64,000 nt of DNA from a virus, in IMG/VR virus record IMGVR_UViG_3300008108_007099, positions 1 to 64,000 of that record, one strand, 5' to 3'. Positions 15,690 to 47,581 of the stretch are shown one piece after another. The notes beneath the pieces were generated by a model, which searched no databases, was not told the DNA's origin, and was given only the letters and a program-made list of their open reading frames with translations. The first letter of the stretch is position 1, and each line of letters begins with the position of its first letter. The translations under genes and the position numbers were made by a program.

Positions 15690-15692
15690 TTA

Positions 15693-17573: not shown

Positions 17574-18077
17574 ATGGCGGATTTAAATCAGTGGCAGGCA
17601 GCCCAGAATGTAAACATAGTTGGACAAAGCGGCGCAGCAGTTGTCACTGACATTATTTCCGGCAATCCGCAAGGACTTGTTGTACGTAATATTCCTACTA
17701 GCGGTCTTACTCAGCCAGTAGCAGAAACACCTGAATCTTCAAACTATTTTGCTCCAACATCTTACAACAGTAGCGATTATGAAAGTTTTGGTGTGGCAAA
17801 AACTAGCGCGGGAAATTTATTTGGTTTTTGTGGATATAACGCAAGTGAACAATACATGTTTTTGCAAGTCCATAATTCTGATTCAATTCCTCAGAGCGGC
17901 GATAGCCCCACAGTAATATTAAGTTGTCCTCCCTGTAACAACTTCTTCTGGGATGGAGGAAAGTTTGGAATTTATTTTTCCAGCGGCTTGACGTGGACTG
18001 CCAGTACAACAGGGAATATTTATACACCACAAACAGTATATAGTGGTAGTGTTTGGGTGAACGTTTTCTACAAATAA
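17574..18077 (+). CDS. Hypothetical virion-associated protein (167 aa, SG-rich)
   Basis: AGGAG SD; first gene of the + strand fibre operon; no family recognised. Confidence 0.65.
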   Translation: MADLNQWQAAQNVNIVGQSGAAVVTDIISGNPQGLVVRNIPTSGLTQPVAETPESSNYFAPTSYNSSDYESFGVAKTSAGNLFGFCGYNASEQYMFLQVHNSDSIPQSGDSPTVILSCPPCNNFFWDGGKFGIYFSSGLTWTASTTGNIYTPQTVYSGSVWVNVFYK

Positions 18078-18088
18078 TAGGATAGAGT

Positions 18089-20248
18089 ATGGCAGTAACC
18101 TCAATGAATTGCGGCTTTCAAATAATTCTCTCCAGTGGTTCTATCCAGTCTGGGCAGATTGGAAATGCCGCCGTAAATAGCGGAAATATCGCCTCAGGAC
18201 AAATCGGCGCAGACCATTTAGCCAGCGGTCTACTAGGGCAGCTAAGTTTATCTTCTGGGGACGTTACTAGCGGCTATTTAGGCAACGCGTCAGTTGTAAG
18301 TGGAAGTATCGGCAGTGGTCAAATTGGCGGATTCCATATTCAGAGTGGATTTATTTATCCGGGTAGTAATGTATCAATTACAGTAGATTCAAACAATAAT
18401 TACCAAATTAACGCCACCGTAAGCGGTGGTGTTGCTGTTAATCCTCTCACATTTTCTAGTGGTTTAGCTTTAAACAGCGGTAGTTTCTTTGACGGATCTC
18501 AATCCATGATAGCAGGTATCGCTTCTGGCGGTATCACTGCAAATCTGATTGGCAGCGGCGCTGTCACAACAAATGCTATTGCTAGTGGCTCGGTTACTTT
18601 AGAATCTTTAGCCAGCGGCGTACAGTCTTCATTTGTGATTGGTTCTGGAAGTGTTACAAGCGGTACATTAGCGCCAAGCGCAGTAACTAGCGGCACAATA
18701 GCCTCAGGATCAGTATCCTCACAAGATATTGCTAGCGGCTTAGTTTATGCTGGGGCAAATGTTACTGTTTTTATTGATGGACAAAACCGATACCAAGTAA
18801 GTGCAACTCCAAGTGGTTCACTTTCAGTTCTTCCTTTGAATGTAGGAAGCGGCTTAATTTTAACTAGCGGTACATTCTTTGATGGATCCTCAGTCAATGC
18901 CATAGGCATAGCCAGCGGCGGAGTTGTAAGCGGAAGCATTGGAAATGATGCCGTATTGAGCGGCAATATCGCCTCAGGCCAAATTACAACACAACACTTT
19001 GCTTCTGGTGTTCTCCAGTCCTTCTTTTTGACATCTGGTGATGTTACAAGCGGATTTATAGGAGATGGTGCAGTTGTCAGTGGAAGCGTGGCAAGCGGCG
19101 CACTTGGATACGTTCATTTAAACAGCGGATTCGTATTCCAAGCTGATTTACTAGTAACTCTAAATAGCGGCAAAACATTTGGAAGGTATGATAGTGGTGA
19201 CACTATTCCTGCATCAGGTTTGAGCCCTTTACAAGTTATAGAATTGGCGCTGAATGAACCGCTCCCACCTTTGGTTTCTGGTTATAGTGCCACTGTAATA
19301 CAATTTAATCAACAGTCTATAAGTAATGTACTAAATTTCAATTATAGCTTCCCAGTGAGCGGTGTTGCTGTTTCAAGTTGTGATTTAAGCTGGAGAAGAA
19401 ATAATTCAGGACCGTGGACAAATTTGACAAATGCCATAGCAAATCCTTTGAATTACACTCACACAACAACTAACACAGCTTTTAATGTTCAGCCATTCAA
19501 TTACAGGTATACAGTAACTGATACTGCTGCAAATTCTACTATACAGTATGTTAATATAACTCCTCAATCTTATGACCCGCCCACCATGGATCTTTCTGTT
19601 ATTGCCAACAGTTTATTTGGGCCTGAAAGTAATTTGGTTAGGGAAACAGGTAATACAAATAGCATTTTGAGTGGAACAATAACAAGGAATGAAACCTTCG
19701 TAAATCTTCAAACAATAACATTACAATACTTGCTAAGTGGCACTTGGGTTGATGGGTATGGCCCAATAAATATTTCTGGATCGGCCACATATACAACTCC
19801 CGCGCAGTCTGTAAATGATAGTGCGTTAGGTTATGCGAGTGGAACAGCTTACAGAATACATTACACTGACATTTATACTAGCGGCAATTCTTCTCCAACA
19901 AATGTGGAATTCCATAATGTAATTTGGTATGGCCCAAGTAGTATAATTCCATCAAATTCAGCACAAATTAGAGCTTTGTCTGGAGCGATATTTGATAATG
20001 GGATAAATCCATTTAACCTCAACACCGGAACAACTGATAACAACTTTGCAGTAGCGATGCCATCAGGACAAGTTTTGGCTTTGGCATTAGACATTACAGC
20101 TGCCAGCTCTGATGTAACAGCTAGCTACAGCGGCAATCCATTCAGCGTGGACAACGCCGCTGCGCTTGCTACTCCATATAACGTTTACACCATGACGAAT
20201 GCTATTCCGTACAACACGGACCACATTCAGCAAATCTATAGAAGTTGA
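18089..20248 (+). CDS. Fibre-like protein: N-terminal IASG repeats plus C-terminal beta-rich domain
   Basis: SGNIASGQIG repeats over the first ~350 aa, followed by unique beta-strand-rich sequence. Confidence 0.7.
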   Translation: MAVTSMNCGFQIILSSGSIQSGQIGNAAVNSGNIASGQIGADHLASGLLGQLSLSSGDVTSGYLGNASVVSGSIGSGQIGGFHIQSGFIYPGSNVSITVDSNNNYQINATVSGGVAVNPLTFSSGLALNSGSFFDGSQSMIAGIASGGITANLIGSGAVTTNAIASGSVTLESLASGVQSSFVIGSGSVTSGTLAPSAVTSGTIASGSVSSQDIASGLVYAGANVTVFIDGQNRYQVSATPSGSLSVLPLNVGSGLILTSGTFFDGSSVNAIGIASGGVVSGSIGNDAVLSGNIASGQITTQHFASGVLQSFFLTSGDVTSGFIGDGAVVSGSVASGALGYVHLNSGFVFQADLLVTLNSGKTFGRYDSGDTIPASGLSPLQVIELALNEPLPPLVSGYSATVIQFNQQSISNVLNFNYSFPVSGVAVSSCDLSWRRNNSGPWTNLTNAIANPLNYTHTTTNTAFNVQPFNYRYTVTDTAANSTIQYVNITPQSYDPPTMDLSVIANSLFGPESNLVRETGNTNSILSGTITRNETFVNLQTITLQYLLSGTWVDGYGPINISGSATYTTPAQSVNDSALGYASGTAYRIHYTDIYTSGNSSPTNVEFHNVIWYGPSSIIPSNSAQIRALSGAIFDNGINPFNLNTGTTDNNFAVAMPSGQVLALALDITAASSDVTASYSGNPFSVDNAAALATPYNVYTMTNAIPYNTDHIQQIYRS

Positions 20249-20260
20249 TAAGGAAGAACT

Positions 20261-23200
20261 ATGTCATTAACACCCGGTTTACAATTACCATACGGAATCC
20301 AACCAGTAAATCCTGTTCCTGTTGATGCATGGTCAGGACCTTATACTGGTGCAAGCTTAAGCGCTGCAGTAGCTGCCGCCAATGCTTCGATTCCTTCAGC
20401 CGTAAGATTTCAATCCTTGCAAGTACGCCTTATTGTAGGCGGAACATCTTACCTTTATTGGTATAAAGATGGCATAACAGATTTAGATTTAGTGCCTGTA
20501 GTTGTAGGCTTGCTTTCTGGGCAAGTAACTAGTGGATATTTGGGTGATAATTCTGTCACCAGTGGCAATATTGCTTCAGGGCAAGTCGGACAATTTCATA
20601 TTAGCAGCGGAACAATCAACTCTGGACAAATTGGTGATAATGCCGTTGTAAGTGGAAATATAGCAAGCGGAACAGTTGGAGAGTTTGAGTTAAGCAGTGG
20701 CGCTGTTCACAGAGAACAAATAGCCCTAAATGCTGTTAACAACGAACATCTTGCCGATAATGCTGTCACAAGCGGAAAAATTGCTTCTGGTCAGATAGGA
20801 CAGTTTCATTTAAGTAGCGGCGCAGTCAATAGTGGTCAAATTGGTGACAATGCAGTCCTTAGTGGAAACATTGGTTCAGGCCAAATCGGCGCTTATCATA
20901 TTGCTTCTGGTGTAATTAACAGTGAATTGATTGCTTCCGGCGCAGTTGGACCAGAAGAAATAGCCAATGATGCTGTTGTTTCTGGCAAAATAGCATCCGG
21001 CGTGGTAGGTTGGTTCAACCTTTCAAGCGGTGCTATTCTTAGCGGCACCATAGGAGACGCTGCTGTAACATCTGGGAATATCGCCTCAGGCGTTATCACC
21101 AGCGTAAACCTAAGCAGCGGATTAGTGGGTAGCGGACATATAGCTGATGGCGCTGTAAATAGTGGCAATATATCTTCGGGTCAGATCGGCCAATTCCATT
21201 TAAGCAGCGGAACAGTTAACTCTGGTCAGATCGGTGATAATGCCGTATTAAGCGGAAACATTGGTTCCGGTCAAATCGGCGCTTACCACATTGCTTCTGG
21301 TGTAATTAACAGCGAACTTATTGCCTCTGGCGCGGTTGGCCCAGAAGAAATTGCTAATGACGCAGTTGTCTCTGGTAAAATAGCATCCGGAGTAGTTGGT
21401 TGGTTTAATATTTCCAGCGGAGCAATTCTTAGTGGAAATGTTGGAAATGATGCCATCACAAGTGGAAATGTCGCGAGCGGACAAATTGGATTGGATCATC
21501 TTGCAAGCGGAGTTTATGAACTATTTACAATTTCATCTGGCGAGATTGTAAGTGGTTTAATTGGAAACTCAGCAGTCAATAGTGGAAATATAGCGTCTGG
21601 ACAAGTTGGTCAATATCATTTAAGTGTTGGTGCTGTAAACTCAGGACAAATCGCAGACAATTCAGTACTTAGCGGCAACATTGCTAGCGGACAAGTTGGT
21701 CAGTATCACCTAAGTAGCGGTGCTGTTAATTCGGGGCAACTTGCTGACAATTCAGTTGTAAGCGGCAGCATTGCTTCCGGACAAGTGCATCTATTTGCCT
21801 TGTCTAGTGGCGCTGTAATGTCCGGACAACTAGGGGATCAATCTGTAAATTCTGGAACAGTATCAAGCGGACAATTAGGCAGTGTGCATATTGCTTCTGG
21901 CAGTATTTACGGATTTAATATCGCCGCAAACACAATCACAAACGAAAATATCGTAAATGACACATTTAGCATCAACAGCACACTAATATCTCTTGGTGGT
22001 TCTTATACGTTAAGCGCATTACAGGTAGCAAGTGGTCTACTTGGTGGCCCATACAATGGCAGCAGCGGCGCTCTCATTGGAATAGCAAGCGGTGGCATCG
22101 TAGCTCAAATGATTGGCTCTGGCGCAATCGTAAGCGGAGCACTAGCCAGCGGCGCAATATATAGCGACAGCATATCAAGCGGCTCTATTACCAGCGGCAA
22201 GATATCTGACGGGGCTGTCACCAGCGGTTCAATTGCAAGCGGACAAATTGGTAATGCACATATTGCCAGCGGAGCAATTCTAAGTGGTCAAATAGGAAAT
22301 AATGCGGTTGTAAGTGGAAATATCGCTTCTGGCCAAATTAGCACATCCGATTTATCAAGTGGCGCAGTCAATAGCGGACAGCTTGGAAATGGTGCAGTAA
22401 ATAGCGGCAACATTGGCTCCGGACAAATCGGTGCAATGCACCTCGCTTCCGGTGTTATCAATAGTGAATTGATTGCTTCTGGCGCAGTAGGACCTGAAGA
22501 AATTGCGGATAACGCGATCATAAGTGGCAAGCTTACAAGCGGTGTAGTTGCTTGGTTTAATATGGCGTCTGGCGCAATCCTTAGCGGATCTGTCGGAAAT
22601 GATGCAATTACAAGTGGAAACATTGCCTCTGGACAGATTGGATTAAATCATCTTGCTTCAGGCATATTAGATTTATTCACCATTTCTTCTGGAGAAATTG
22701 TTAGTGGCCTAATAGGCGACTCTGCTGTCAATAGTGGCAACATAGCTTCTGGACAAGTCGGCCAATTCCATCTAAGTAGCGGCGCTGTTAATAGCGGACA
22801 AATTGGCGATTTTGCCATAGTTAGTGGCAATATCGCATCCGGCGTAATCACCAGTGTAAACCTTAGCAGCGGACTTGTTGGAAGCGGTCATATTGGCGAT
22901 GGAGCGGTACTAAGTGGAAGCGTTGCATCTGGCCAAATTGGTCAATTCCATTTAAGTAGTGGCGTTGTTAATTCTGGACAAATAGGCAATGATGCAGTCG
23001 TATCTGGAAGCATTGCCTCCGGTCAAGTGGGACTAGACCACTTAGCCAGCGGGCTTTATGAGCTATTCACAATTTCATCTGGTGAAATCGTAAGTGGTTT
23101 GATTGGCGATGCAGCAGTTAATTCTGGAAATATAGCTTCTGGACAGGTTGGTCAATTCCACCTAAGCAGTGGGGCTGTTAATAGTGGCCAAGTTGGCGAT

Positions 23201-26200
23201 TCAGCTATAGTATCTGGCAATATTGCCTCTGGTGTAATCAACAGCGTAAACCTTAGCAGCGGCCTTGTAGGAAGCGGTCATATTGGCGATGGAGCAGTAC
23301 TAAGTGGTAGTATTGCCTCCGGTCAAATTGGTCAATTCCATCTAAGTAGCGGTGCTGTTAATAGTGGACAACTCGGTAATGATGCGGTTGTATCTGGAAG
23401 TATCGCTTCTGGCCAAATCGGAACCTATCATATTGCTTCCGGTAGCATTACAAGTGAATTAATCGCATCTGGAACAGTCATTGCCGTTGATATTGCTGAC
23501 GATGCGGTTGTCAGCGGCAAAATCGCCAGCGGAGCAGTAGCATGGTTTAACCTTAGTAGCGGAACGGTAAACTCAGGGAATATAGGAAACGAAGCTGTAA
23601 CATCTGGCAATATTGCTTCAGGACAAGTAGGAGTAGATCATCTTGCAAGTGGTGTGCTTGCTTCAATTATAATTGAATCTGGCAAAGTAACCAGCGGAAT
23701 GCTTGGTGATGGCGCAGTAAATTCTGGAAATATAGCAAGTGGTCAAATTGGCGAGCACCATATCGCTTCTGGCGCGATAATAAGCGGCGCACTTGGAAAT
23801 GATGTAGTAATCAGCGGAAAGATTGCTAGTGGTCAAATTGGCTGGTTTAATCTTGCCAGCGGCGCTATTGTAAGCGGTGGTTTGGGTAATGAATCAGTAG
23901 TTTCAGGATCAATAGCAAGCGGAGCAATTGGTTCAACTCACATTTCTTCTGGCGGTGTTGATTTTTATAACTTAGCCCCTGATTCGGTCAGAAGCGGAAC
24001 AATTGCTAGCGGAGCAATTTCAGCTGACAATTTAGGTAGCGGCACAATTTCTAGCGGCAAGATTGCTGACGGTGCTGTACTAAGCGGAAGCATTGCATCT
24101 GGACAAATAGGAACTGATCATATATCTTCTGGCAGCATTACAAGTTTGCTACTAGCCGATGATTCTATCGTAAGCGGCAAATTAGCATCAGGTGTTGTTG
24201 CTTGGTTTAACATGTCTTCTGGCGCAATACTTAGCGGCAATGTTGGAAACGATGCAATCACAAGTGGCAACATCGCTTCTGGCCAAGTAGGATTAGATCA
24301 TTTAGCCAGTGGATTATACGAACTATTCACAATTTCTTCTGGCGAAATTGTAAGCGGACTTATCGGTGACGCAGCAGTCAATAGTGGAAATGTTGCTAGT
24401 GGGAGCATTGGCTCTGTTCACCTAGCTAGCGGCACAAGCTTGTCCATGCTTAATGTTGTGCCGCAAGCAAATAGCGGTTTCTACTATATTCCAGTATTAA
24501 GCAATAATAGTGGTGCAGTTGACGCATTTAGTGTAGTAGAATTCGGTTTAAATCCTGCAATCTCCTTGTTAACATTGCCCACATCTGGAGCAGGGTCAAA
24601 CTTTAACATCTGGGCAGGACCTGCTCAAAACAATACAATTATTGGTCAATATGATGCAGTTTCAACTAGTCCAAATGTTGAAAGATCAGTAATTATCGGG
24701 CCTACAACTGCAGGCGCTATAACGAGCGGGGCTAATTTAATTGCTATAGGTGTTGGCGCAATGCAAGCGGCAACAGAAGCAGTTGGGTCTATAGCTCTTG
24801 GCGAAAACACCTTGCAGTATGGTGGCGGATATAATGTAGCAATCGGCCATAACGCATTGTCAGATGTAAGCGGTCAACTTAATGTAGCAATAGGCACAAA
24901 CGCATTAACACAGTTAAAAGCCGGCATGAACAATGTCGCCGTTGGAAGCAGTGCTGGTTCCAGCTTGCTAAGTGGATACAGCAACATTTATCTTCTAGGA
25001 GATACTGGTGCTGTAAGTGGTGAAGCAATATTCGAGATTGCTATCGGTGGAATCGGTCTTGGTCAAAACAATACTACTATTGGCTGGAATCAAACCACCA
25101 CTAATGCGACAATTTATGGCTTGACAAATTTACCACAAGGTTTGGAAGTAGTTATGTCTGGCAACGTAAATGCCAGCATAAACGCAAGTGGTATTATCAA
25201 CGGCACCTTAGCTGACGGAATAGTTACAAGTGGCAGTATTGGCTCTGGTCAAATCGGAGCTTATCACTTAGCTTCTGGTGTAATTAATTCAGAACTAATT
25301 GCTTCCGGTGCAGTAGGACCAGAGGAGATTGGCGATAACGCAATCATAAGTGGCAAGCTAGCCTCTGGAGTTGTTGCTTGGTTCAACATGGCCTCTGGCG
25401 CTATTCTCAGTGGCTCCGTTGGAAATGAAGCAATTACATCTGGCAACATAGGATCAGGCCAGATTGGCGCATATCATTTAGCTTCTGGTGTAATCAACTC
25501 AGAACTAATTGCTTCAGGCGCAGTAGGACCAGAAGAGATTGGCGATAACGCAATAATCAGTGGCAAGTTGGCCTCTGGAGTTGTTGCTTGGTTCAACATG
25601 GCTTCTGGAGCTATTCTCAGTGGCTCCGTTGGAAACGAAGCAATTACTAGCGGAAACATAGGTAGTGGCCAAATCGGTGCTTATCACTTGGCTTCTGGTG
25701 TAATTAATAGTGAACTAATTGCATCCGGCGCAGTAGGACCTGAGGAAATTGCCGACAACGCAATTATAAGCGGCAAGCTTGCAAGCGGCGTAGTTGCTTG
25801 GTTCAATATGGCGTCTGGCGCAATCAATAGCGGCAACCTTGCAAATGAATCAGTTACAAGCGGTAACATAGCCAGCGGTAGCATAGGCGGTGTACACATA
25901 CAATCTGGCGGATTGACAGGCGAAGATATCGCTGCGGCAACTATTCAAAATAACAATTTAGTAAACAGCACAATTACTTTAAACGGAAGCATCACAGCAC
26001 TCGGCGGCTCTTACACCATTTCCACTTTAACATTCGGAAGCGGTTTGCAAGGCGGTCCATATAACGGTTCTAGCGGTGCAACCGTTGGAATAGCAAGTGG
26101 CGGTGTCACATCGGGAATGTTAGCAGACGGCTCTGTAGTATCAAATACTATTGCAAGCGGTCAGGTTGGACAATTTAACTTAAGTAGTGGCGCTGTAAAT

Positions 26201-27169: not shown

Positions 27170-27229
27170 AAGAATTTTGGTTCATTTTATCATAAATATG
27201 GTTAAGTAATATTTTTAAGGAGCATTTCG

Positions 27230-31681: not shown

Positions 31682-31735
31682 TAACAATACTGAACTGATA
31701 TATGAAGGTAACCAGATAGGAATATAGGGAAAACT

Positions 31736-34700
31736 ATGAGTCACGAATTAAAAGCTATAACTGGTCTATTCGTACCGAGCGGTTCATTGATCCAAGGGAC
31801 CTTAGCTTCCGGCACGGTTACTTCAGGTAGTATTGGCGCTGGTGCCGTTGTTAACGGCAACATCGCTTCAGGACAGGTTGGGACATTTCAGATAGCCTCT
31901 GGAGCAATAACGGGAAACCTTATTGCTTCAGGGGCTGTCGCCTCTGTTGACTTAGCAGATAATTCTGTAGTCAGCGGCAAAATCGCAAGTGGTTCAGTAT
32001 CGTGGTTTACTCTTGGAAGCGGAGTTGTTAATTCTGGTAATCTCGGAGTAAATTCTGTAGTAAGTGGCAATATAGCAAGTGGTGCGGTGGGTCTTTTCGG
32101 CTTGGCTTCTGGCGTTGTTGTTTCTGGTATAATTGGAAATAATGCAGTAAATAGCGGGAATATTTCGAGTGGTGCAGTTGGATTATATCAGCTTGGTGTA
32201 GCTTCTGGTACAGTAGAGGGAAAACAACTTACACTAGATGCCGATACCGGCATGTTAACTTGGCAAAGTCCACAGACAACAGTAGCCCGTGTGAAAAATG
32301 GCACAGCTGCTATTATTTCAGGTCTAGCTGTTGTTTACATTTCTGGTGGTGCTGGCGCAAATCCTTTTGTTGCACCAGCCCAAGCGAATGCGGACTTAAC
32401 CTCCTTAGCCACTTTCGGAGTAGCGGCTGCCAATATAGGAGCTAATGCCGAGGGAACTGTTGTAACTCAAGGCATTTTAACAAATGTAAATACAAGTGCT
32501 TTCAATGACGGCGATGTACTATTCTTAAGCCCAACTGTTGCAGGAGCAGTCACAAATGTAAAACCCCAAGCTCCTGACCACCTTGTTCTTATTGGCTATG
32601 TAACTAACGCAGCAAATAATGGCACAATTGAAGTTGCAATTCAAAACGGATATGAAATCGAAGAACTGCATGATGTAAAAATATTATCCGGTAGTTTGCA
32701 GTCCGGACAAATTCTACAATATAGCTCAGGCGTTTGGTGGAATCAAAACTTTGTTGCGGGCTCAACAAATCTAGGTAGCGGCTCTGTCACATCTGGTGCT
32801 ATCGCTTCTGGCCAAGTAGGACCTAGTGCTTTGGCTAGTGGTGTAATTGCAGGACTTATCGTTAGTGGTTCAGTACAAAGTGGCGATTTAGGTACTGGGG
32901 CAGTAAACAATATAAATATTTCTAGTGGTACGATTTCCAATGACAAGCTTGTAAATAACTCAATTACCATAGATGGCTCTTCCACTGCGCTAGGCGGCAG
33001 CTACTCTTCGCAGGCACTTACTACTTCTAGCGGACTGTTGGCCGGTACTTACTACCCATCTGGTTCTATTACAATAGGTATTGCCTCTGGCGGAATAGTA
33101 GCACAAATGATGGGCAGTGGTTCAATAACTGCCAATGCTATTGCGTCAGGTCAGGTTGGCCCAAATGCTTTGGCCAGTGGCGCTATTGCTGGACTTATTG
33201 CAAGTGGAGCTATTGGCAGTGGAGACTTGGGAATAGGCGCTGTAAATAATGAGAATATAACCTCTGGAACGGTTGCAAATGATAAGTTGGCAAATAGCAC
33301 CGTAACAATCGCAGGTTCAAGTACTGCTCTTGGAGGTTCTTGGGCTGCAGAAAGCCTTACGGCAGCCAGTGGGCTATCAGCAGTTACCTATTATCCTTCC
33401 GGAGCAGCAGTCATAGGAATAGCTTCCGGTGGTGTTATTGCTCAGATGCTTGCAAATGGTTCTGTAACATCAGGGGCAATTGCTTCTGGGCAAGTTGGCC
33501 CAAATGCATTGGCTAGCGGCGTAATTGCAGGCTTAATAGTAAGCGGATCGGTACAAAGTGGCGATTTAGGACTTGGCGCTGTCAACAACGAAAATATTGC
33601 CAGTGGCACTATAGCTAATGACAAACTCGCAAATAACTCAATTACTATTGATGGCGCTTTAACTGCTCTAGGCGGAACGCGCAGCTCATTAGCCCTGACA
33701 ACATCTAGCGGCTTACTTGCCGGTACATATTATCCATCTGGAGCCTTGACAATTGGCATAGCTTCCGGTGGCATCACCAGTCAGTTGCTTGCCGATGGGG
33801 CTGTAAACACTAATGATATTGCTTCTGGCGCAGTAGGAACAAATCAAATAGCATCTGGAGCGGTTACTGGCACTAATATTGCCGCGACCACAGTTGCAAA
33901 TACAAATTTAGTAAACAGCACAGTTACGATTGCGGGTTCTTCCACTGCACTTGGCGCTTCTTGGGCAGCAGCCGCTCTTACGACAAGTAGCGGATTACTT
34001 GCTGGAACATATTATCCTTCTGGTGCGCTGACAATTGGAATTGCATCTGGCGGCATAGTTGCCCAAATGATGGGCAGCGGTTCGGTCACAAGCAACGCAA
34101 TTGCATCTGGCCAAGTAGGAACATTTGCACTAGCCAGCGGTTTAATAACAGGATTGATTGTCAGCGGTTCAGTACAAAGTGGAGACCTTGGTCTTGGTGC
34201 TGTAAATAATGAAAACATAGCTTCTGGAACTGTTGCTAATGACAAATTGACAAATAGCACAGTCACAATTGCCGGTTCAAGTACTGCTCTTGGAGGTTCT
34301 TGGGCGGCAGCAGCATTAACTACCGCAAGCGGCTTGCTTGCCGGCACATACTATCCATCTGGCGCGCTCACCATTGGCATAGCATCTGGTGGAATTACAA
34401 GCCAAATGCTTGCCGATGCATCTGTTACAACAAATGACATTGCTTCTGGTGCAGTAGGAACGAATCAAATAGCTTCAGGGGCAGTAACCGGAACCAACAT
34501 TGCTGCAACAACCGTTGCAAATACAAATTTAGTAAACAGCGCAATTACAATAGCTGGTTCTTCTACATCTTTAGGTGGAACTTGGGCAGCCGCTGCACTC
34601 ACAACAAGTAGCGGATTACTTGCCGGCACATATTATCCATCAGGTTCGCTTACAATCGGAATTGCTTCCGGCGGCATAGTTGCACAAATGATGGGAAGCG

Positions 34701-36031
34701 GATCGGTAAATAGCAACGCAATTGCTTCAGGACAGGTAGGGCCTTTTGCGTTGGCTAGTGGCGTAGTTGCCGGGTTAATTGGAAGTGGTTCAGTACAAAG
34801 CGGAGACCTTGGTCTTGGTGCTGTCAATAATGAAAATATTTCAAGTGGAACTGTTGCTAATGACAAATTGACAAATAGCACAGTCACAATTGCCGGTTCA
34901 AGTACTGCTCTAGGTGGCACTTGGGCAGCCCAAAGTCTAACAGCAGCCAGTGGCTTATCAGCCGTTACTTATTATCCCTCTGGAGCAGCTGTCATAGGAA
35001 TTGCATCAGGTGGCGTATCATCTGGAATGCTTGCTAATGGATCAGTAGTTAGTGGCTCTATAGGTTCTGGTCAAATTGGACAGTTCCACTTAGCTAGCGG
35101 TGCCGCTAATTTGCTTCTCACTAGTGGAATAGTAGTGAGCGGCATGGTTGGAAATGCTGCTGTTACTAGTGGTAGCATTGCCAGTGGCTCTATCGGACAA
35201 ATGCACCTCAGCCAGCTTTTGATTCCCAAAATGCAAGCTCCCGGCAGACTTTCACTCTATAGTGGTGCTCCTGTTGTAAGCGGCGGATACATAAGCGGCG
35301 CAAACAAATTATACTACAATCCTTACAACGGAAGTACTATATCTCTGTTCGATGGCGTTTCATGGTTAGAATATGAAATTAATCAGCCAGTCATGCTAGA
35401 TTTGAATACTGGCTTGCAATCCGGAACCATGTATGACATTTTCATGTTTGGAAATGCCGGAATATCTGGTTCACCATCTTTAGCAGCGGTCAACTGGACA
35501 AGTGGCGGAAACAGAGCGCCAATAGTATATCAAAATGGAATACCTTTAAGCCAATTTACAGGCGGAAGATATTTAGGAACTATTAGAACAACAACAAGTT
35601 CTACGTCTGAAGATAGTCCATACAGAAGATTTGTATGGAACTATGATAACAGAATTACAAATACTTTATATTACACTGACAGCACTCAGCACACTTACAA
35701 CAGTCCTACACCTAGAGTGTGGAACCTGAATTCCGGTTCACGACTTGAATTTATACAGGGCGTAGCTGGCATAGGTGCGTCTACCTCATGTTTTGTAGCC
35801 AGCTACGTGACTCCCGGTGCAACTAGTATTTGCAGCTTTGAGAGTGACGGAGTCTTCAGCGGAACTAACTACAATGTTTTCAATACATTTACTGGTTTGT
35901 TCTGGTCACAAAGCATGCTAATGGTAGGAAATTGCAATGAAGGATATAATTACCTCCAATTGATGGAATCATGCCAGAGTGGAACAGTAACGAATGTGTC
36001 TATGACTTTAACAGGGACAATAGAGGTTTAA
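31736..36031 (+). CDS. Giant fibre-like repeat protein (1431 aa) with C-terminal phage tail-fibre-associated domain
   Basis: IASG and YYPSG modules; internal domain ending NGYEIEELHDV; C-terminal GRLSL.SG.PV...YLGTIRT...RRFVWNYDNR. Confidence 0.75.
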   Translation: MSHELKAITGLFVPSGSLIQGTLASGTVTSGSIGAGAVVNGNIASGQVGTFQIASGAITGNLIASGAVASVDLADNSVVSGKIASGSVSWFTLGSGVVNSGNLGVNSVVSGNIASGAVGLFGLASGVVVSGIIGNNAVNSGNISSGAVGLYQLGVASGTVEGKQLTLDADTGMLTWQSPQTTVARVKNGTAAIISGLAVVYISGGAGANPFVAPAQANADLTSLATFGVAAANIGANAEGTVVTQGILTNVNTSAFNDGDVLFLSPTVAGAVTNVKPQAPDHLVLIGYVTNAANNGTIEVAIQNGYEIEELHDVKILSGSLQSGQILQYSSGVWWNQNFVAGSTNLGSGSVTSGAIASGQVGPSALASGVIAGLIVSGSVQSGDLGTGAVNNINISSGTISNDKLVNNSITIDGSSTALGGSYSSQALTTSSGLLAGTYYPSGSITIGIASGGIVAQMMGSGSITANAIASGQVGPNALASGAIAGLIASGAIGSGDLGIGAVNNENITSGTVANDKLANSTVTIAGSSTALGGSWAAESLTAASGLSAVTYYPSGAAVIGIASGGVIAQMLANGSVTSGAIASGQVGPNALASGVIAGLIVSGSVQSGDLGLGAVNNENIASGTIANDKLANNSITIDGALTALGGTRSSLALTTSSGLLAGTYYPSGALTIGIASGGITSQLLADGAVNTNDIASGAVGTNQIASGAVTGTNIAATTVANTNLVNSTVTIAGSSTALGASWAAAALTTSSGLLAGTYYPSGALTIGIASGGIVAQMMGSGSVTSNAIASGQVGTFALASGLITGLIVSGSVQSGDLGLGAVNNENIASGTVANDKLTNSTVTIAGSSTALGGSWAAAALTTASGLLAGTYYPSGALTIGIASGGITSQMLADASVTTNDIASGAVGTNQIASGAVTGTNIAATTVANTNLVNSAITIAGSSTSLGGTWAAAALTTSSGLLAGTYYPSGSLTIGIASGGIVAQMMGSGSVNSNAIASGQVGPFALASGVVAGLIGSGSVQSGDLGLGAVNNENISSGTVANDKLTNSTVTIAGSSTALGGTWAAQSLTAASGLSAVTYYPSGAAVIGIASGGVSSGMLANGSVVSGSIGSGQIGQFHLASGAANLLLTSGIVVSGMVGNAAVTSGSIASGSIGQMHLSQLLIPKMQAPGRLSLYSGAPVVSGGYISGANKLYYNPYNGSTISLFDGVSWLEYEINQPVMLDLNTGLQSGTMYDIFMFGNAGISGSPSLAAVNWTSGGNRAPIVYQNGIPLSQFTGGRYLGTIRTTTSSTSEDSPYRRFVWNYDNRITNTLYYTDSTQHTYNSPTPRVWNLNSGSRLEFIQGVAGIGASTSCFVASYVTPGATSICSFESDGVFSGTNYNVFNTFTGLFWSQSMLMVGNCNEGYNYLQLMESCQSGTVTNVSMTLTGTIEV

Positions 36032-36034
36032 AAA

Positions 36035-39000
36035 ATGGCTGTATATACACTACAACAGTTCAACGATGCGGTCGCTGCGGTTTGCCCAATTACGGGTGTA
36101 ACAGTAAGTGGCAATGGCGTGTTGGGATATTTCCCAGCCGCTGGAGCTACATCAGGACAGCTTTCTGCTGCTAATGGCGTTGTTGCTACTTACAGCGGAC
36201 AAGTAACAAGCGGAACACCTCAAGGACCAGTTGCTTCTGGCAGCTTCAATGCGGCCATTTTGTTCAGCGGCACAGTCGTATCTCCAAACATGGGAAGCGG
36301 CTCAATCTTATCAAATTCAATTGGTTCTGGTGCTGTTACTTCTCCAAAATTAGACGTTGGTGCTGTAGGCGCAAACGCCATCGCATCTGGTGCAATTACT
36401 AGCGGTAAATTAGCAGATAACGCCGTTTTCGGCAACATGGTTGCCTCTGGTGCAATTACAGCAAATAAACTTGGCATTGCATCAGTAATGAATTTAAATT
36501 TGAGCAGTGGTTCAATTACTAATGACAAGCTGGTTAATAGCACTGTCACTATTGCTGGTTCATCTACAGCATTGGGTGGTTCTTGGGCTGCACAAAGCTT
36601 GACAGCTGCCAGCGGATTGTCATCGGTAACTTATTATCCTTCCGGCACAGCCATATTTGGAATTGCATCTGGCGGCATCGTTGCTCAAATGATGGGCAGT
36701 GGTTCAGTAACTACAAATGCTATAGCTAGCGGATCTATCACGGCAAATCTTTTGGCAAGCGGAGCTGTAACCGACATTGTTGGAAGTGGTTCTGTGACAA
36801 GTGGCGATGTCGGCATCGGCGCAATTAACAACTTGAATATTGCTTCAGGCACAATAAGCAACGATAAATTAGTAAACAGCGCGGTTACAATTAACGGAGC
36901 TTCCACAGCACTTGGAGGTTCTTACAATAATTCTACACTTACTTTAGGCGCGGGATTAGCCGGTGGTTCCTACAACGGTTCTGGTGCTGTAACAGCAAGT
37001 GTTGCTTCGGGCGGAATTACTAGCCAGATGTTGGCAGATTCTGCAGTTGCATCTGGTGATGTCGCTATTGGAGCAATAAATAACCAAAACATAGCTTCTG
37101 GCACAGTTGCAAATGACAAATTAACAAATAATTCAGTAACAATTGCAGGAAGTTCTACAGCATTAGGTGGAAGCTGGGCAGCACAAAGCCTAGTTCATGC
37201 TAGCGGTCTTTCCGCTGTAACTTATTATCCCTCTGGCTCGGCTGTAGTAGGTATTGCTTCTGGCGGTATCGTTGCTCAAATGATGGGTAGTGGATCTGTA
37301 ACTGCCAATGCTATTGCTAGCGGTTCAGTTACTGCCGACGCCTTGGCTAGCGGTGCTATTTCGGCGATAGTTGGAAGTGGCGCAATCACTAGCGGAGACT
37401 TAGGACTTGGCGCAGTAAATAATTTAAATGTTGCATCAGGAACTCTGTCAAACGACAAGCTTGTAAATAGCAGCGTTACAATCGCTGGATCTTCTACAGC
37501 TTTAGGTGGGTCTTGGGCTGCTTCCGCTCTAACAACTGCATCTGGATTGCTTGCCGGAACTTATTATCCATCAGGTTCACTGACAATTGGAATTGCTTCC
37601 GGAGGCATTACTAGCGAGCTTCTCGCTGATGGCTCAGTAAATACAAACGATATTGCTTCCGGTGCAGTCGGAACAAATCAAATAGCATCCGGTGCTATTA
37701 CTGGCACATCCATATCATCTGGAGCTATTACAGGTGCAAATATTGCTTCTGGCACTATTACAGGAAGTAAGCTAGCTGCCGCAACGGTACAAAACGCTAA
37801 TCTCGCAAATTCATCTATAAACATAGCTGCTCTAAATGTGCCACTAGGCGGGTCTTGGACTCCACAAGCCTTAACCACCGCTAGCGGTTTGCTGGCTGGA
37901 ACATTTTATGTAAGTGGTGCGCTAACCATTGGTATAGCTTCTGGCGGAATTACAAGTCAGCTAATAGCCGATGGGGCTGTTAATACAAATGACATTGCTT
38001 CTGGAGCAGTTGGAACTAACCAAATTGCATCAGGTGCTGTCACCGGAACAAACATAGCCGCAACAACTGTTGCTAATGCAAACCTCGTCAACAGCGCTGT
38101 AACTATCGCTGGTTCCTCAACGAGCTTGGGCGGTTCTTGGGCAGCTCAATCCTTGGTACATGCTAGCGGTCTTTCTGCTGTAACCTATTACCCATCCGGT
38201 TCTGCTGTAGTTGGCATTGCTTCCGGTGGCATAGTTGCCCAAATGATGGGCAGCGGGTCAGTCACTGCCAACGCAATCGCAAGCGGTTCGGTTACTGCCG
38301 ATGCTCTTGCTAGTGGCGCAATATCCGCCATCGTTGGCAGCGGTGCAATTACTAGTGGCGACTTAGGAATTGGCGCTGTCAACAATCTGAATATTGCTTC
38401 AGGCACCGTAGCCAATGACAAACTTGCAAATAGTACAGTAACCATTGCAGGTTCCAGCACCTCCCTAGGTGGTAGCTGGGCTGCAGCAGCACTTACAACA
38501 GCTAGCGGATTGGCCGCAGGAACATATTACCCGTCAGGCGCTTTGACAATAGGCATTGCTACTAACGGAGTAGTCACAGCTATGATTGCTTCTGGTGCAG
38601 TGGGGACTAATCAAATTGCTTCAGGTGCTGTCACCGGAACAAATATAGCAGCAACAACTGTTGCCAATGCAAACCTCGTTAACAGCGCTGTAACTATCGC
38701 TGGTTCCTCAACGAGCTTGGGCGGTTCTTGGGCAGCTGCAGCACTTACAACATCTAGCGGATTGCTTGCTGGCACATATTATCCATCAGGCGCACTGACT
38801 ATAGGATTAGCTTCCGGCGGAATTACAAGCCAATTGATTGCTGACGGTGCTGTTGGAACAAACGAGCTTGCCACAAGTGCAGTGACTAATGACAAAATTA
38901 CAAGTGGTACTGTTGCTAATGACAAACTTGCTAATAGCAGCGTAACCATAGCAGGCTCCTCTACTGCTCTAGGCGGTAGCTGGGCAGCCCAAAGTTTGAC

Positions 39001-42000
39001 GGCAGCAAGCGGTCTTTCATCAGTTACTTACTATCCTTCTGGATCGGCTGTAATTGGAATAGCTTCTGGCGGAATCGTTGCACAGATGATGGGTAGCGGT
39101 TCTGTCACCACAAATGCAATTGCTAGCGGTTCTGTCACCACAAATGCATTAGCAAGCGGAGCAATTTCAGCAATCGTTGGAAGCGGAGCAATTACTAGCG
39201 GCGATTTAGGAATCGCAACTGTGAATAACTTAAACATAGTAAGTGGAACCATAAGCAACGATAAACTTGTAAATAGCTCAATCACTATCAATGGTGCATC
39301 AACAGCACTAGGTGGAAGTTATGCTAACGCTGCCTTGACACTGGGCACTGGTCTCACAGGTGGTTCATATAATGGTTCAGGTGCAGTCACTGCAGCTATC
39401 GCTTCGGGCGGTATTACAAACGAAATGATTGCAGACAATGCAATCACTACAAATGACATAGCTTCTGGTCAAGTAACTGGAGCCAAGATTGCTGCAACCA
39501 CAGTGGCAAATGCTAATTTGGTCAATAGCGCAGTCACAATTGCAGGTTCTTCCACTGCACTAGGTGGTAGCTGGGCCGCAGCAGCTTTAACTACCGCAAG
39601 CGGACTAGCAGCAGGAACTTATTATCCTTCAGGCGCTCTTACCATAGGAATTGCAACAGCTGGCGTAGTAAATGCGATGATTGCTAGTGGAGCGGTCACA
39701 GGCACAAGCATAGCCGCTTCAACTGTAGCAAATGCGAACTTAGTAAATAGTGCTGTAACAATTGCAGGTTCTTCAACATCCTTGGGTGGTTCTTGGGCTG
39801 CTCAAGCACTTACAACTGCCAGTGGTTTATTGGCAGGAACTTACTATCCATCTGGAGCACTCACTATTGGTTTAGCATCCGGTGGAATTACAAGTCAATT
39901 AATTGCAGATGGGGCCGTTGGAACAAACGAGCTTGCCACAAGTGCAGTAACTAACGACAAAATTACAAGCGGAACTGTTGCTAATGACAAACTTGCAAAC
40001 AGCACAGTCACAATCGCTGGCTCGTCTACTGCCTTAGGTGGAAGCTGGGCTGCACAAAGTCTAACTGCCGCAAGCGGTTTATCTGCTGTAACATATTATC
40101 CTTCCGGAGCGGCTGTTATAGGCATCGCTTCTGGTGGAATTATAGCACAAATGATGGGTAGTGGTTCTGTAACTGCTAATGCAATCGCTAGCGGTTCGGT
40201 TACTGCAAATGCACTAGCTAGCGGAGCAATATCAGCCATAGTTGGTAGTGGTGCAATTACCAGTGGAGATTTGGGAATTGGTGCAATTAATAATCTAAAC
40301 ATATCCAGCGGAACAATTAGCAACGATAAGCTTGCAAATAGCTCTATTACAATTAACGGCGCTTCAACAGCGCTTGGTGGCAGCTATGCAAATGCCGCTC
40401 TAACACTTGGAACTGGCTTAACTGGTGGTTCATACAATGGATCAGGTGCCGTAACTGCAGCTATAGCTTCCGGTGGCATAACAGGAGAAATGATTGCTGA
40501 CAACGCAATCACAACAAATGATATTGCGTCGGGACAGGTTACAGGAGCCAAGATTGCCGCAAGCACTGTGGCAAATGCAAATCTTGCAAACAGCACAATT
40601 ACAATCGCTGGATCTTCTACCGCCTTAGGCGCAAGCTGGGCAGCAGCAGCCCTAACAACTTCTAGCGGCTTGACTGCTGGTACTTACTATCCTTCAGGCG
40701 CTCTTACCATAGGGATTGCATCTGGCGGCATCGTTGCCCAAATGATGGGAAGTGGATCAGTTCTATCGGGTGCAATTGGCTCAGGGCAAATTGGGCCAAA
40801 TCATTTATCTTCCGGAATTAGCGTTACCACTGCCACAAAAATAAGTATAGAGGGAACAAACGCCAGCGGTCTATATCCTGTAGTATTTACAAGTGGCATC
40901 GCTAGTAGCAACCAAGCCTATTCATGCTCTGGACTATTTTACAATCCGGCACTCAGAAGCCTTGATATAGTTTGTTATTTGAGCGGCGGTACAACCGGTG
41001 GCGTTTCAATATTCCCCGGCAACAATGGTACAGCAACGATTGTGGGTCAAAATGCAGCCAGAAACGGTGCCAGTACTGGTGCATTCAGCACTATTATTGG
41101 CAGGGATGCACTTGCAAGCGGATCATCGGAGGCCAACAGCGTTATTATAGGATATAGGGCAGCATGGGGATCACAAGGTACCGGCGATAACGTTATAATC
41201 GGCAAAGAGGCCGCAGCAAACGCTGTGGGAACTAGTTTAAGCGTTCTTATAGGTGATTCTGTTGCAAGTAGAGGATTTGGGAATGGTACTTTTGGTAACG
41301 TTGCTATCGGTGCCGCAGCTGGTACGACTGCTGATGGCGTATTAATGTATGAAAGTGTGCATGTTGGAAGGCAAGCCGGCTCAGCTGGCCCTGCATTAGC
41401 CAGCGGCACAAGTGGTGGTAGTAATATTTACTTAGGCGCATATACCATGCGTGGTAGCGACGGTGGTCGTTGGAACGAAATAGTAATTGGCTGCAATATG
41501 AGTGGCCTTGGTACTAACACCATCACTATGGGACGAACTGATACTGCTTCCGGTAGAATTTATGGAAATATCAACTTCCCATATGGAATTTCGTTCCCAT
41601 CCGGCGGTATCACATCAGGTGGTGTTTTCACAGCTTCCCTAGGATCTGGATTGGTCCGAAGTGGAGCTATAAGCTCTGGTCAGATAGGAATAAATCATCT
41701 CGCTGCAGGCGCATGGTCTGCCAACCAAGTCTTAGGTCAAGATGGCGCAGGCAATCTAGACTGGATTACACCAACTACAACAGTGAATAGTGGTGGAATT
41801 ACTAGCGGCATGCTAGGAATTGCTTCAGTAAACAATATCAACATTGTTTCTGGAACCATAAGCAACGATAAACTTGCCAACAGTGCCGTCACAATCGCTG
41901 GTTCTTCAACATCCTTGGGTGGTTCTTGGGCCGCACAAGCTCTGATACATGCCAGTGGTCTATCTGCCGTCACTTATTATCCTTCTGGACAGGCCGTTGT

Positions 42001-42913
42001 TGGCATAGCATCTGGCGGAATCGTAGGAGAAATGATTGCCGACAACGCAATCACAACAAATGATATTGCATCGGGACAAGTGACAGGCGCTAAAATTGCC
42101 GCTACCACTGTAGCAAATGCAAATCTCGTAAACAGTGCTGTTACAATAGCCGGTTCTTCTACGGCACTTGGTGCAAGCTGGGCCGCAGCAGCCCTAACAA
42201 CAGCCAGTGGTCTTCTAGCCGGCACATACTATCCATCAGGTGCTCTGACCATCGGCATAGCCTCTGGCGGAATTACGAGCGAACTAATTGCAGATAATGC
42301 GGTTGGAACTAATGAAATTAGTAACGGATCAGTTACTAATGCCAAATTGCAAAATAGCGCAGTCACGATTGCTGGCTCATCTACTTCTCTCGGCGGTAGC
42401 TGGGCGGCTCAAGCTCTTACAACAGCAAGCGGACTAGCAGCAGGAACATACTATCCATCAGGCGCTTTGACGATAGGTATTGCTACAGCCGGTGTTGTAA
42501 CTGCCATGATTGCTTCTGGCGCAGTTGGTAGCAACCAAATAGCTTCTGGCGCTGTCGGCGAACTACAGATGTCCAACACAGTTGCCAACAAGACAATTAT
42601 TGGCGATATTCAGACAATAAGTGCCCAAACAGGCGCTTACACGTTAGCATCTGGTGACGCCGGTAAACTAATTACAGTTAATGCAGCTGGCGCAACCATA
42701 GTCACAATACCAACAAACGCTACTGTACCTTTTGCGGTTGGATCACACATCGACTTCATTCAGCTTGGTGCTGGACAGGTCACAATTAGCGGCAATACTG
42801 GTGTAACCATAAATTACACTCCCGGCAACAAGCTTAGAACCCAATACGCTGGTGCTTCTGTAATCAAGATTGCCACAGATACTTGGTGTTTAGTTGGCGA
42901 TATTTCAACATAA
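36035..42913 (+). CDS. Giant fibre-like repeat protein (2292 aa)
   Basis: Many TIAGSSTALGGSWAA.ALTTASGL.AGTYYPSG modules; Gly-rich beta-roll-like block at ~41020-41570; C-terminal YTL...DAGKLI...F.VG..I...QLGAGQVT domain typical of phage fibre tips. Confidence 0.75.
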   Translation: MAVYTLQQFNDAVAAVCPITGVTVSGNGVLGYFPAAGATSGQLSAANGVVATYSGQVTSGTPQGPVASGSFNAAILFSGTVVSPNMGSGSILSNSIGSGAVTSPKLDVGAVGANAIASGAITSGKLADNAVFGNMVASGAITANKLGIASVMNLNLSSGSITNDKLVNSTVTIAGSSTALGGSWAAQSLTAASGLSSVTYYPSGTAIFGIASGGIVAQMMGSGSVTTNAIASGSITANLLASGAVTDIVGSGSVTSGDVGIGAINNLNIASGTISNDKLVNSAVTINGASTALGGSYNNSTLTLGAGLAGGSYNGSGAVTASVASGGITSQMLADSAVASGDVAIGAINNQNIASGTVANDKLTNNSVTIAGSSTALGGSWAAQSLVHASGLSAVTYYPSGSAVVGIASGGIVAQMMGSGSVTANAIASGSVTADALASGAISAIVGSGAITSGDLGLGAVNNLNVASGTLSNDKLVNSSVTIAGSSTALGGSWAASALTTASGLLAGTYYPSGSLTIGIASGGITSELLADGSVNTNDIASGAVGTNQIASGAITGTSISSGAITGANIASGTITGSKLAAATVQNANLANSSINIAALNVPLGGSWTPQALTTASGLLAGTFYVSGALTIGIASGGITSQLIADGAVNTNDIASGAVGTNQIASGAVTGTNIAATTVANANLVNSAVTIAGSSTSLGGSWAAQSLVHASGLSAVTYYPSGSAVVGIASGGIVAQMMGSGSVTANAIASGSVTADALASGAISAIVGSGAITSGDLGIGAVNNLNIASGTVANDKLANSTVTIAGSSTSLGGSWAAAALTTASGLAAGTYYPSGALTIGIATNGVVTAMIASGAVGTNQIASGAVTGTNIAATTVANANLVNSAVTIAGSSTSLGGSWAAAALTTSSGLLAGTYYPSGALTIGLASGGITSQLIADGAVGTNELATSAVTNDKITSGTVANDKLANSSVTIAGSSTALGGSWAAQSLTAASGLSSVTYYPSGSAVIGIASGGIVAQMMGSGSVTTNAIASGSVTTNALASGAISAIVGSGAITSGDLGIATVNNLNIVSGTISNDKLVNSSITINGASTALGGSYANAALTLGTGLTGGSYNGSGAVTAAIASGGITNEMIADNAITTNDIASGQVTGAKIAATTVANANLVNSAVTIAGSSTALGGSWAAAALTTASGLAAGTYYPSGALTIGIATAGVVNAMIASGAVTGTSIAASTVANANLVNSAVTIAGSSTSLGGSWAAQALTTASGLLAGTYYPSGALTIGLASGGITSQLIADGAVGTNELATSAVTNDKITSGTVANDKLANSTVTIAGSSTALGGSWAAQSLTAASGLSAVTYYPSGAAVIGIASGGIIAQMMGSGSVTANAIASGSVTANALASGAISAIVGSGAITSGDLGIGAINNLNISSGTISNDKLANSSITINGASTALGGSYANAALTLGTGLTGGSYNGSGAVTAAIASGGITGEMIADNAITTNDIASGQVTGAKIAASTVANANLANSTITIAGSSTALGASWAAAALTTSSGLTAGTYYPSGALTIGIASGGIVAQMMGSGSVLSGAIGSGQIGPNHLSSGISVTTATKISIEGTNASGLYPVVFTSGIASSNQAYSCSGLFYNPALRSLDIVCYLSGGTTGGVSIFPGNNGTATIVGQNAARNGASTGAFSTIIGRDALASGSSEANSVIIGYRAAWGSQGTGDNVIIGKEAAANAVGTSLSVLIGDSVASRGFGNGTFGNVAIGAAAGTTADGVLMYESVHVGRQAGSAGPALASGTSGGSNIYLGAYTMRGSDGGRWNEIVIGCNMSGLGTNTITMGRTDTASGRIYGNINFPYGISFPSGGITSGGVFTASLGSGLVRSGAISSGQIGINHLAAGAWSANQVLGQDGAGNLDWITPTTTVNSGGITSGMLGIASVNNINIVSGTISNDKLANSAVTIAGSSTSLGGSWAAQALIHASGLSAVTYYPSGQAVVGIASGGIVGEMIADNAITTNDIASGQVTGAKIAATTVANANLVNSAVTIAGSSTALGASWAAAALTTASGLLAGTYYPSGALTIGIASGGITSELIADNAVGTNEISNGSVTNAKLQNSAVTIAGSSTSLGGSWAAQALTTASGLAAGTYYPSGALTIGIATAGVVTAMIASGAVGSNQIASGAVGELQMSNTVANKTIIGDIQTISAQTGAYTLASGDAGKLITVNAAGATIVTIPTNATVPFAVGSHIDFIQLGAGQVTISGNTGVTINYTPGNKLRTQYAGASVIKIATDTWCLVGDIST

Positions 42914-47580: not shown

Positions 47581-47581
47581 A

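Follow-up and report, generated by a model that had tools for sequence, protein, structure and literature searches.

Ser-Gly dipeptides accumulated stepwise in the fibre operon of a divergent myovirus and may mark sites of serine O-glycosylation

We analysed a window of 64,000 nt (positions 1 to 64,000 of IMG/VR virus record IMGVR_UViG_3300008108_007099), which makes up the initial 64 kb of one 91.5-kb viral contig, and followed up an earlier note, made from the letters alone, that the dipeptide Ser-Gly (SG) is imposed on all proteins of a six-gene operon. The operon lies on the plus strand at positions 17574-42913, with intergenic gaps of 3-60 nt, and encodes proteins of 167, 719, 2302, 1483, 1431 and 2292 amino acids (aa). 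We found SG in excess in all six proteins and gained step by step in two unrelated globular domains, where its Ser is under constraint. Just upstream on the minus strand (13030-17368) lies a conserved block, called cassette 1 in the following, with genes for three predicted glycosyltransferases (GTs) and a methyltransferase. With high confidence we conclude that positive selection specific to the operon acts on SG, and that it cannot be explained by any one fold. The most economical reading, which we hold at about even odds, is that SG serves as an acceptor tag for Ser O-glycosylation on the fibre-operon proteins.

Ser-Gly is in excess in all six operon proteins

Expected SG numbers were corrected for the composition of each protein, and z values were obtained from shuffles. 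In this per-gene dipeptide check the proposed enrichment held, with observed-to-expected ratios (O/E) of 2.7-3.9 across the operon (Table 1). The 719-aa protein has 49 SG versus 12.4 expected (O/E 3.9) and the 1431-aa protein 95 versus 30.4 (O/E 3.1); shuffle z values for the five large proteins were 12-23. Taken alone, the 167-aa protein shows a modest excess (P 0.01). The manual counts given previously for the 719-aa C-terminus (14 of 23 Gly in SG), the 167-aa protein (six SG) and the 1431-aa C-terminus (nine SG) proved exact. The accompanying statement that sheath, neck and enzyme genes lack such saturation was likewise borne out, as every other open reading frame (ORF) across the whole contig, sheath and neck included, lies at or below expectation. 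The related dipeptides Thr-Gly, Asn-Gly and Asp-Gly are not raised.

The five large proteins are rich in both residues (Ser 13-16%, Gly 11-17%) and their repeats hold most of the SG, so that an artefact of composition, repeat counting, a DNA word or chance had to be considered. We regard it as very improbable. The z values above are composition-corrected, and the excess extends to non-repeat segments: 11 such segments, picked by eye, together contain 76 SG versus 27 expected, and a conservative subset without stalk edges still has 40 versus 13. Moreover, comparably Ser/Gly-rich neighbours are depleted. A 3742-aa RCC1/LamG protein (1618-12846) has an O/E of 0.66 (z -3.0), and the RCC1-repeat protein directly downstream of the operon has 4 SG versus 9.5 expected (O/E 0.42, z -2.0) despite 11.6% Ser and 11.0% Gly. 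The Ser of SG is encoded by AGC, AGT, TCT, TCA, TCC and TCG, thus by both the AGY and the TCN family, within many different hexamers; the signal therefore resides in the protein, and a DNA-level cause was ruled out. Finally, the outgroup comparison described below revealed a gain of SG without a change in composition.

Ser-Gly sites were gained stepwise in two unrelated globular domains

The 14 SG in the C-terminal 369 aa of the 719-aa protein compare with 2.6 expected (P 2e-8). According to its AlphaFold2 (AF2) model (pLDDT 92), this domain is a tandem of FN3/Ig-like beta-sandwiches; Foldseek matched it to FN3/Ig tandems with probability 1.0, the low global TM being due to inter-domain angles. 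More than 100 metagenomic homologues of 40-48% identity carry the domain behind varied N-termini (collagen, RCC1, F5/8-C). In 110 distant homologues the domain contains 0-7 SG (mean 3.8, expected ~3.2), compared with 8-13 in nine close relatives that share the SG-rich stalk. The earlier note had asked for exactly this comparison, and SG in the globular domains turned out to be specific to the clade of the analysed phage. None of the other 400 dipeptides deviates as strongly in this domain as SG (11.8 versus 3.8). Ser and Gly totals in the clade are the same as or lower than in the outgroups, which rules out a shift in composition.

Two routes led to the new sites. In one, the residue preceding a conserved Gly became Ser (from Asn, Thr, Leu or Gly); in the other, a new Gly arose after a Ser at positions where the homologues have Leu (109 of 110) or mostly Thr or Ser. 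Ser-Gly also took the place of an Ile/Val-Leu pair at one site. Because SG is absent from the new sites in all 110 outgroups, these are gains rather than losses, and they build up in a nested manner along the lineage, from 8 to 11 to 14. P0116, the sister of the clade with the same kind of stalk, has 13 SG, about nine of them at other columns, so that both branches kept gaining sites. Lineages with a collagen-like G-x-S stalk, which is SG-rich too, have normal C-terminal domains (1-7 SG), and a spill-over from any SG-rich stalk was ruled out on these grounds.

These collagen-like proteins represent a second, different kind of Ser/Gly-rich fibre. In five loci (L008, L010, L014, L016 and L032) giant G-x-S proteins are encoded just downstream of the homologous C-domain gene, one example being a protein of 2381 aa that contains 610 SG and consists to about 82% of G-x-x runs.

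A fibre-tip family with more than 4400 representatives includes the last 267 aa of the 1431-aa protein, where nine SG compare with 3.7 expected. The mean is 4.2 in 61 far homologues, compared with 9-10 in the query and its close relatives, whose clade gained SG sites at TA, TS, ND, TE and TT columns. The sister pair P0140/P0136 (35% identity) has the same IASGQ[IV]GQFHL stalk and 10 SG each, five of them at columns private to the pair, which hold Thr-Glu, Thr-Thr or Ala-Thr in other homologues. In the family of the 167-aa protein, five of the six SG are invariant down to 57% identity, and no SG-free outgroup was found among its homologues.

Within the clade, we compared the Ser of SG with other Ser in the three domain families. 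It is conserved in 80%, 85% and 86% of alignment cells versus 58%, 62% and 63% for other Ser (Fisher P 3e-4, 2e-3 and 9e-3, with cells that are not phylogenetically independent). SG that arose de novo in two unrelated domains, its position as the outlier of 400 dipeptides and the constraint on Ser together lend good support to the earlier proposal of selection for a short motif rather than a structural need of one fold.

A conserved glycosyltransferase cassette adjoins the Ser-Gly fibres

Cassette 1 comprises, from the operon outward, a small 219-aa GT-A enzyme, two GT4 enzymes (b and a) and a triple methyltransferase. In six close loci it is 86-100% identical, with fibres that have diverged to 48-76% identity and still have SG O/E values of 3-4. 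The block is intact in 12 of the 12 distant loci analysed, in each of which it directly adjoins non-collagen, SG-enriched fibre genes (O/E 2-4, P < 1e-4); RCC1/LamG-type neighbours stand beside it in only two of these 12. Across all 18 related loci the cassette enzymes are 50-100% and the fibres 32-76% identical. The triple methyltransferase is found in every one of them (53-96% identity), GT4 b at 66-99% identity, and GT4 a is kept throughout. The fibre genes of the distant loci run tail-to-head into cassette 1, compared with a divergent arrangement of fibres and cassette in the analysed window; the adjacency has thus survived rearrangement. Four of the loci (L095, L107, L108 and L110; ~8750-9930, minus strand) encode between fibres and cassette a protein of 389-410 aa that is absent from the analysed window. 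It is weakly similar to the 219-aa enzyme (22-23% identity, E 1e-6 to 1e-8) and may be an extra glycosyltransferase paralogue.

The 219-aa protein contains invariant FFLDDD and SEDF motifs and was modelled with a GT-A fold (AF2 pLDDT 80.5). Foldseek matched the model to many GT-A enzymes with probability 1.0 (TMq 0.5-0.59), the closest structures being STIV A197, human COLGALT1, the GT domain of LH3, Mimivirus R699 and polypeptide GalNAc-transferases (ppGalNAc-T2). By motifs and model it is a GT-A-fold DxD glycosyltransferase. Its similarity to Pfam GT2 stayed below the cut-off (17.5 versus 23.3 bits), and a sequence search against PDB gave no match. GT-A folds are all alike, and the protein-directed enzymes among its structural matches are a hint only. 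The enzyme occurs at 55-100% identity in 26 viral loci, about 20 of which are further contigs at 55-67%. Its close relatives themselves contain 3-4 SG versus 0.6-0.8 expected, within the conserved stretches SGMPFD, VSGLYYRR and VGSGC; the counts are low, and these are probably chance or fold motifs.

The selection signal says that Ser-Gly matters and not why, and another tag is conceivable: Ser could carry a phosphate, sulfate or acyl group, SG could be where a fibre chaperone or a decoration protein docks, or it could remove protease or defence sites. A sulfotransferase and further methyltransferases are encoded in the window, and the 167-aa protein, which is co-operonic, conserved and without a family match (none in Pfam, PHROG or NCBIfam), would be a candidate for the docking partner. 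We nevertheless consider such a tag improbable. The cassette with the sulfotransferase accompanies RCC1-type proteins with normal SG in distant relatives, neither a kinase nor any other enzyme that modifies Ser was found beside the operon, and the sole block that always accompanies SG fibres is the one with three glycosyltransferases and a methyltransferase.

Ser-Gly as a possible acceptor for O-glycosylation

The reading we favour, at about even odds, is that SG is a selected surface tag, at which a phage enzyme would attach a sugar to the Ser hydroxyl. The enzymes of cassette 1 would work inside the infected cell, either ahead of fibre assembly or while it proceeds. Its 219-aa GT-A protein is the candidate initiator of the glycan, the two GT4 enzymes may extend it, and the triple methyltransferase may O-methylate the sugars. 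In the stalk, acceptor sites would sit at the repeat turn with a spacing of about 5-10 residues; on the globular tips, extra sites would have been added singly in loops and hairpins, resembling the N-glycan sequons on animal-virus spikes. The outcome would be a glycan coat on the fibres that could act as a shield against proteases or defences, or promote solubility or adhesion. We advance only tentatively the more general proposal that a widespread group of very large aquatic phages encodes a dedicated protein O-glycosylation system with bare Ser-Gly as acceptor, in which the GT-A enzyme starts, the GT4 enzymes extend and the methyltransferase caps the glycan, and that these phages tune the density of glycans on their fibres by gain and loss of SG within domains that are otherwise conserved.

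The repeat stalk is where this proposal meets its main competitor. Its motif is [IVL]-A-S-G-x-[IVL], and successive SG are 5, 10, 15 or 20 residues apart; these multiples of five identify the stalk as a five-residue-period repeat with SG at the turn. As read from the sequence, the pattern is Ser-specific, and acidic residues are not enriched around SG in the context logo. Pfam holds no family for the 719-aa protein or any of the four giant proteins, and PHROG tail-fibre families alone match the stalk. Alignments of the stalk repeats to outgroups have ~23% identity and are unreliable at column level. In the cultured Arthrobacter phage Mimi, which has a matching stalk, Ala-Gly, Ala-Gln or Ala-Asp occupy the equivalent turn and SG is not enriched (6 versus 5.7 expected); Ser is therefore not required by the fold. 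The tail fibre of the cultured Terrisporobacter phage TVCOM_ph1 (PP197245.1, 17387-18370), by comparison, has a five-residue stalk reading IASGAV, with 14 SG versus 4.2 expected. The earlier view that comparable phage repeats usually read IADGAVT finds partial support: Ala-Asp is one of the pairs at the turn of Mimi, but the Terrisporobacter fibre has IASGAV as well.

Several observations, the TVCOM_ph1 stalk among them, weigh against the glycosylation reading. No glycosyltransferase is annotated in the complete 41.5-kb genome of this phage, so that SG in a stalk cannot alone be read as the sequon of a phage enzyme; the stalk SG are at least partly structural. The earlier note had treated SG in homologues from phages lacking glycosyltransferases as evidence against a sequon, and for the repeat part TVCOM_ph1 is such a case. 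In the globular domain of the 719-aa protein, nine of the 14 SG Ser fall into loops or hairpin turns of the model, three are the first residue of a strand and two lie mid-strand. The surface turns predicted by the earlier note are compatible with this placement; it is, however, not significantly above background, as loops make up 49% of the modelled residues. Two homologues of the 1431-aa C-terminal domain lack SG-rich stalks and also have nine SG. Together with a family baseline above expectation, this makes the test on the 1431-aa protein weaker than that on the 719-aa protein. In two of the three domain families the Gly of SG is also conserved above other Gly, as a turn motif would be.

The link to the enzymes has limits of its own. 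We searched 40 viral records that hold homologues of the 719-aa C-terminal domain for the GT-A gene. It was present in one of them (L113), the one with a P0116-like SG-high gene, and in none of the 39 records with SG-normal C-terminal domains, which are fragmentary (9-84% complete). The association of cassette 1 with SG is a single co-inherited origin inside one group of phages and not a series of independent repeats. Of the glycosyltransferase link implied earlier, the strict synteny with one GT block in 18 loci stood, and it counts as one evolutionary origin. Genes for sugar-nucleotide synthesis were not found in the window, and DNA and host surfaces are further targets that phage glycosyltransferases can have.

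These points bear on a purely structural explanation, which we consider rather unlikely. According to it, SG builds tight turns, with capping by the Ser side chain plus Gly, first in the stalk and then in the tip loops, Ser is left unmodified and the glycosyltransferase cassette acts elsewhere. The spacing in multiples of five and the stalk motif agree with it, as do the occurrence of the same stalk type in a complete phage genome without an annotated glycosyltransferase, the position of most modelled SG in loops, hairpins or strand starts, and the conservation of Gly. The homologous stalk of Mimi, however, makes its turn with other residues, and in the globular domain SG displaced the good turn former Asn-Gly as well as residues outside turns (the Leu shared by 109 of 110 homologues and the Ile/Val-Leu pair). 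The domain folds in over 100 homologues that lack these SG, the related dipeptides Thr-Gly, Asn-Gly and Asp-Gly are not raised, and SG is depleted in other beta-rich outer proteins of this phage. As to TVCOM_ph1, it would offer a tractable system to ask if host enzymes modify such stalks.

Comparison with known systems

A bacterial precedent for the proposed Ser O-glycosylation of fibres by cassette 1 is found in TibC/AAH and their substrates TibA/AIDA-I. TibC heptosylates Ser and not Thr, and its sites in TibA include the Ser in the turn of an N-S-G-G repeat (PMC4358343). The putative phage system would resemble them in many cytoplasmically modified sites at Ser (not Thr), a repetitive beta-solenoid surface protein as substrate and an enzyme gene beside the substrate gene. 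Unlike cassette 1 with its small DxD GT-A enzyme, two GT4 enzymes and triple methyltransferase, these bacterial autotransporter heptosyltransferases (BAHTs) are GT-B enzymes that form iron-binding dodecamers and use ADP-heptose. Cassette 1 holds no BAHT homologue or TibC/AAH-family enzyme; a TPR plus GT9 architecture was seen only in Atlas neighbours of the TPR-499 protein, which belongs to cassette 2 and thus to a block that accompanies RCC1 proteins. The phage substrates would moreover be fibres, and the putative tag reaches globular FN3-like domains.

Glycosyltransferases encoded by mycobacteriophages decorate virion proteins, and the capsid and tail-tube subunits carry these glycans on extensions of their C-termini (Freeman et al. 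2023, PMC10527164, cited after PMC12619734). Phage-encoded glycosyltransferases are common to both cases; the putative targets here differ in being fibre proteins with a dispersed dipeptide, and sheath and neck show no SG excess.

In staphylococcal adhesins the Ser of Ser-Asp (SD) dipeptide repeats is the acceptor for the GT4-family enzymes SdgA and SdgB. The fibres differ from them in having SG instead of SD and in sites that are not limited to a low-complexity linker, and the similarity of the GT4 enzymes is generic: against NCBIfam both GT4 genes gave generic GT4 matches, and scores against the SdgA/SdgB models were 38.5 (SdgA) and 27.6 bits at a cut-off of 800. Xylosylation of proteoglycans shares the minimal acceptor, a Ser followed by Gly, and the window contains a sulfotransferase gene. 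We rejected this analogy: there is no acidic flank, no GT14-type xylosyltransferase was among the fold matches of the GT-A enzyme, and the sulfotransferase cassette goes with RCC1 proteins. The glycan shields of animal viruses resemble our case in the stepwise, lineage-specific gain and the positional turnover of a short motif on an unchanged fold. They are N-linked, made by host enzymes and directed by N-x-S/T, and the analogy is evolutionary only.

To our knowledge, chemical proof of glycosylated phage virions is limited to a few actinophages, and we know of no phage acceptor motif that can be read from sequence. Searching the literature in full text, we found no paper that describes Ser-Gly as an acceptor motif in phages. 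Four core glycosyltransferase families, whose role is given as unknown, are listed in a 2025 paper on large aquatic "moraphages". New in our analysis are the outgroup-polarised stepwise gain of SG in two folds, the control by collagen-like stalks, the counter-example of a stalk in a phage without an annotated glycosyltransferase, and the synteny of the cassette.

If the glycosylation reading is true, SG would be the phage counterpart of the animal-virus glycan shield and the shortest O-glycosylation sequon known, and phage fibres would evolve their glycan density much as animal-virus spikes do. Glycosylated virion surfaces could then be predicted directly from metagenomes, and the small GT-A enzyme would be a candidate for attaching O-glycans to proteins at chosen sites. 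A glycan coat would further bear on host recognition, on resistance to proteases and grazers, and on the persistence of phages in water. Should Ser prove to be unmodified, directional selection would still have favoured one dipeptide in unrelated folds, a case of unusual clarity that would call for another explanation.

Genomic context and neighbouring genes

PHROG matches for tail sheath, sheath stabiliser and neck protein identify the phage as a divergent myovirus, and cultured phages gave weak, partial matches only to the proteins of the window. The contigs of its relatives reach 390 kb and are nevertheless rated by CheckV as 10-30% complete, which points to a very large phage lineage. The features of cassette 1, the operon and the adjacent control gene are listed in Table 1; the 2302-aa and 1483-aa proteins have a C-terminal domain in common.

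Table 1 Features of cassette 1, the Ser-Gly operon and the adjoining RCC1 gene.
Feature	Position	Strand	Evidence
Triple methyltransferase, 560 aa, last gene of cassette 1	13030..14712	-	Pfam Methyltransf_11/25/23 in three stretches
GT4 glycosyltransferase a, 337 aa, cassette 1	14676..15689	-	Pfam Glyco_trans_1_4 and Glycos_transf_1, E 1e-25 to 1e-26
GT4 glycosyltransferase b, 339 aa, cassette 1	15693..16712	-	Pfam Glycos_transf_1, E 5e-17
Small GT-A glycosyltransferase, 219 aa, candidate initiating enzyme, adjoins the operon	16709..17368	-	Motifs, AF2, Foldseek
167-aa protein, first gene of the SG operon	17574..18077	+	6 SG versus 2.0 expected (O/E 3.0, shuffle z 2.9)
Pentad-repeat SG stalk of the 719-aa fibre protein	18089..19138	+	35 SG versus ~11 expected; SG spaced by 5 and 10 residues; PHROG tail-fibre matches
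Globular C-terminal domain of the 719-aa protein, modelled as tandem FN3/Ig-like sandwiches, 14 SG	19139..20248	+	AF2, Foldseek
2302-aa SG fibre protein	20261..27169	+	219 SG versus 60.2 expected (O/E 3.6, z 22.6); no Pfam family
1483-aa SG fibre protein	27230..31681	+	97 SG versus 28.6 expected (O/E 3.4); no Pfam family
Repeat part of the 1431-aa SG fibre protein	31736..35227	+	PHROG tail-fibre matches
C-terminal domain of the 1431-aa protein, widespread fibre-tip family, 9 SG	35228..36031	+	>4400 representatives
2292-aa SG fibre protein	36035..42913	+	131 SG versus 49.2 expected (O/E 2.7); no Pfam family
RCC1-repeat protein, internal negative control, outside the SG set	42959..45193	+	Pfam RCC1

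Downstream of the operon, the RCC1-repeat protein is followed by cassette 2 (46202-51768), in which two GT25-like genes are accompanied by genes for a sulfotransferase, two TPR proteins and a methyltransferase. Relatives at about 55% identity (L083-L086) have this cassette, as methyltransferase, TPR protein and two GT25-like genes with or without the sulfotransferase, beside RCC1-type proteins with normal SG; it therefore probably serves RCC1/LamG mucin-like proteins rather than the SG fibres. The two TPR proteins (49727-51226 and 48369-49727, both minus strand) are paralogues with 34% identity and a conserved C-terminal domain of about 280 aa, and sequence searches against PDB matched neither of them. 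In the Atlas, the TPR-499 protein resembles bacterial TPR plus GT9 (heptosyltransferase-family) proteins of Cyanobacteriota and Campylobacterota, and both TPR proteins may be protein-directed glycosyltransferases. The two GT25-like ORFs (46202-47002 and 46897-47580, minus strand) overlap by about 100 nt. In the related locus L082 they abut and encode 232 and 227 aa, and the longer start at 47002 is probably too far upstream.

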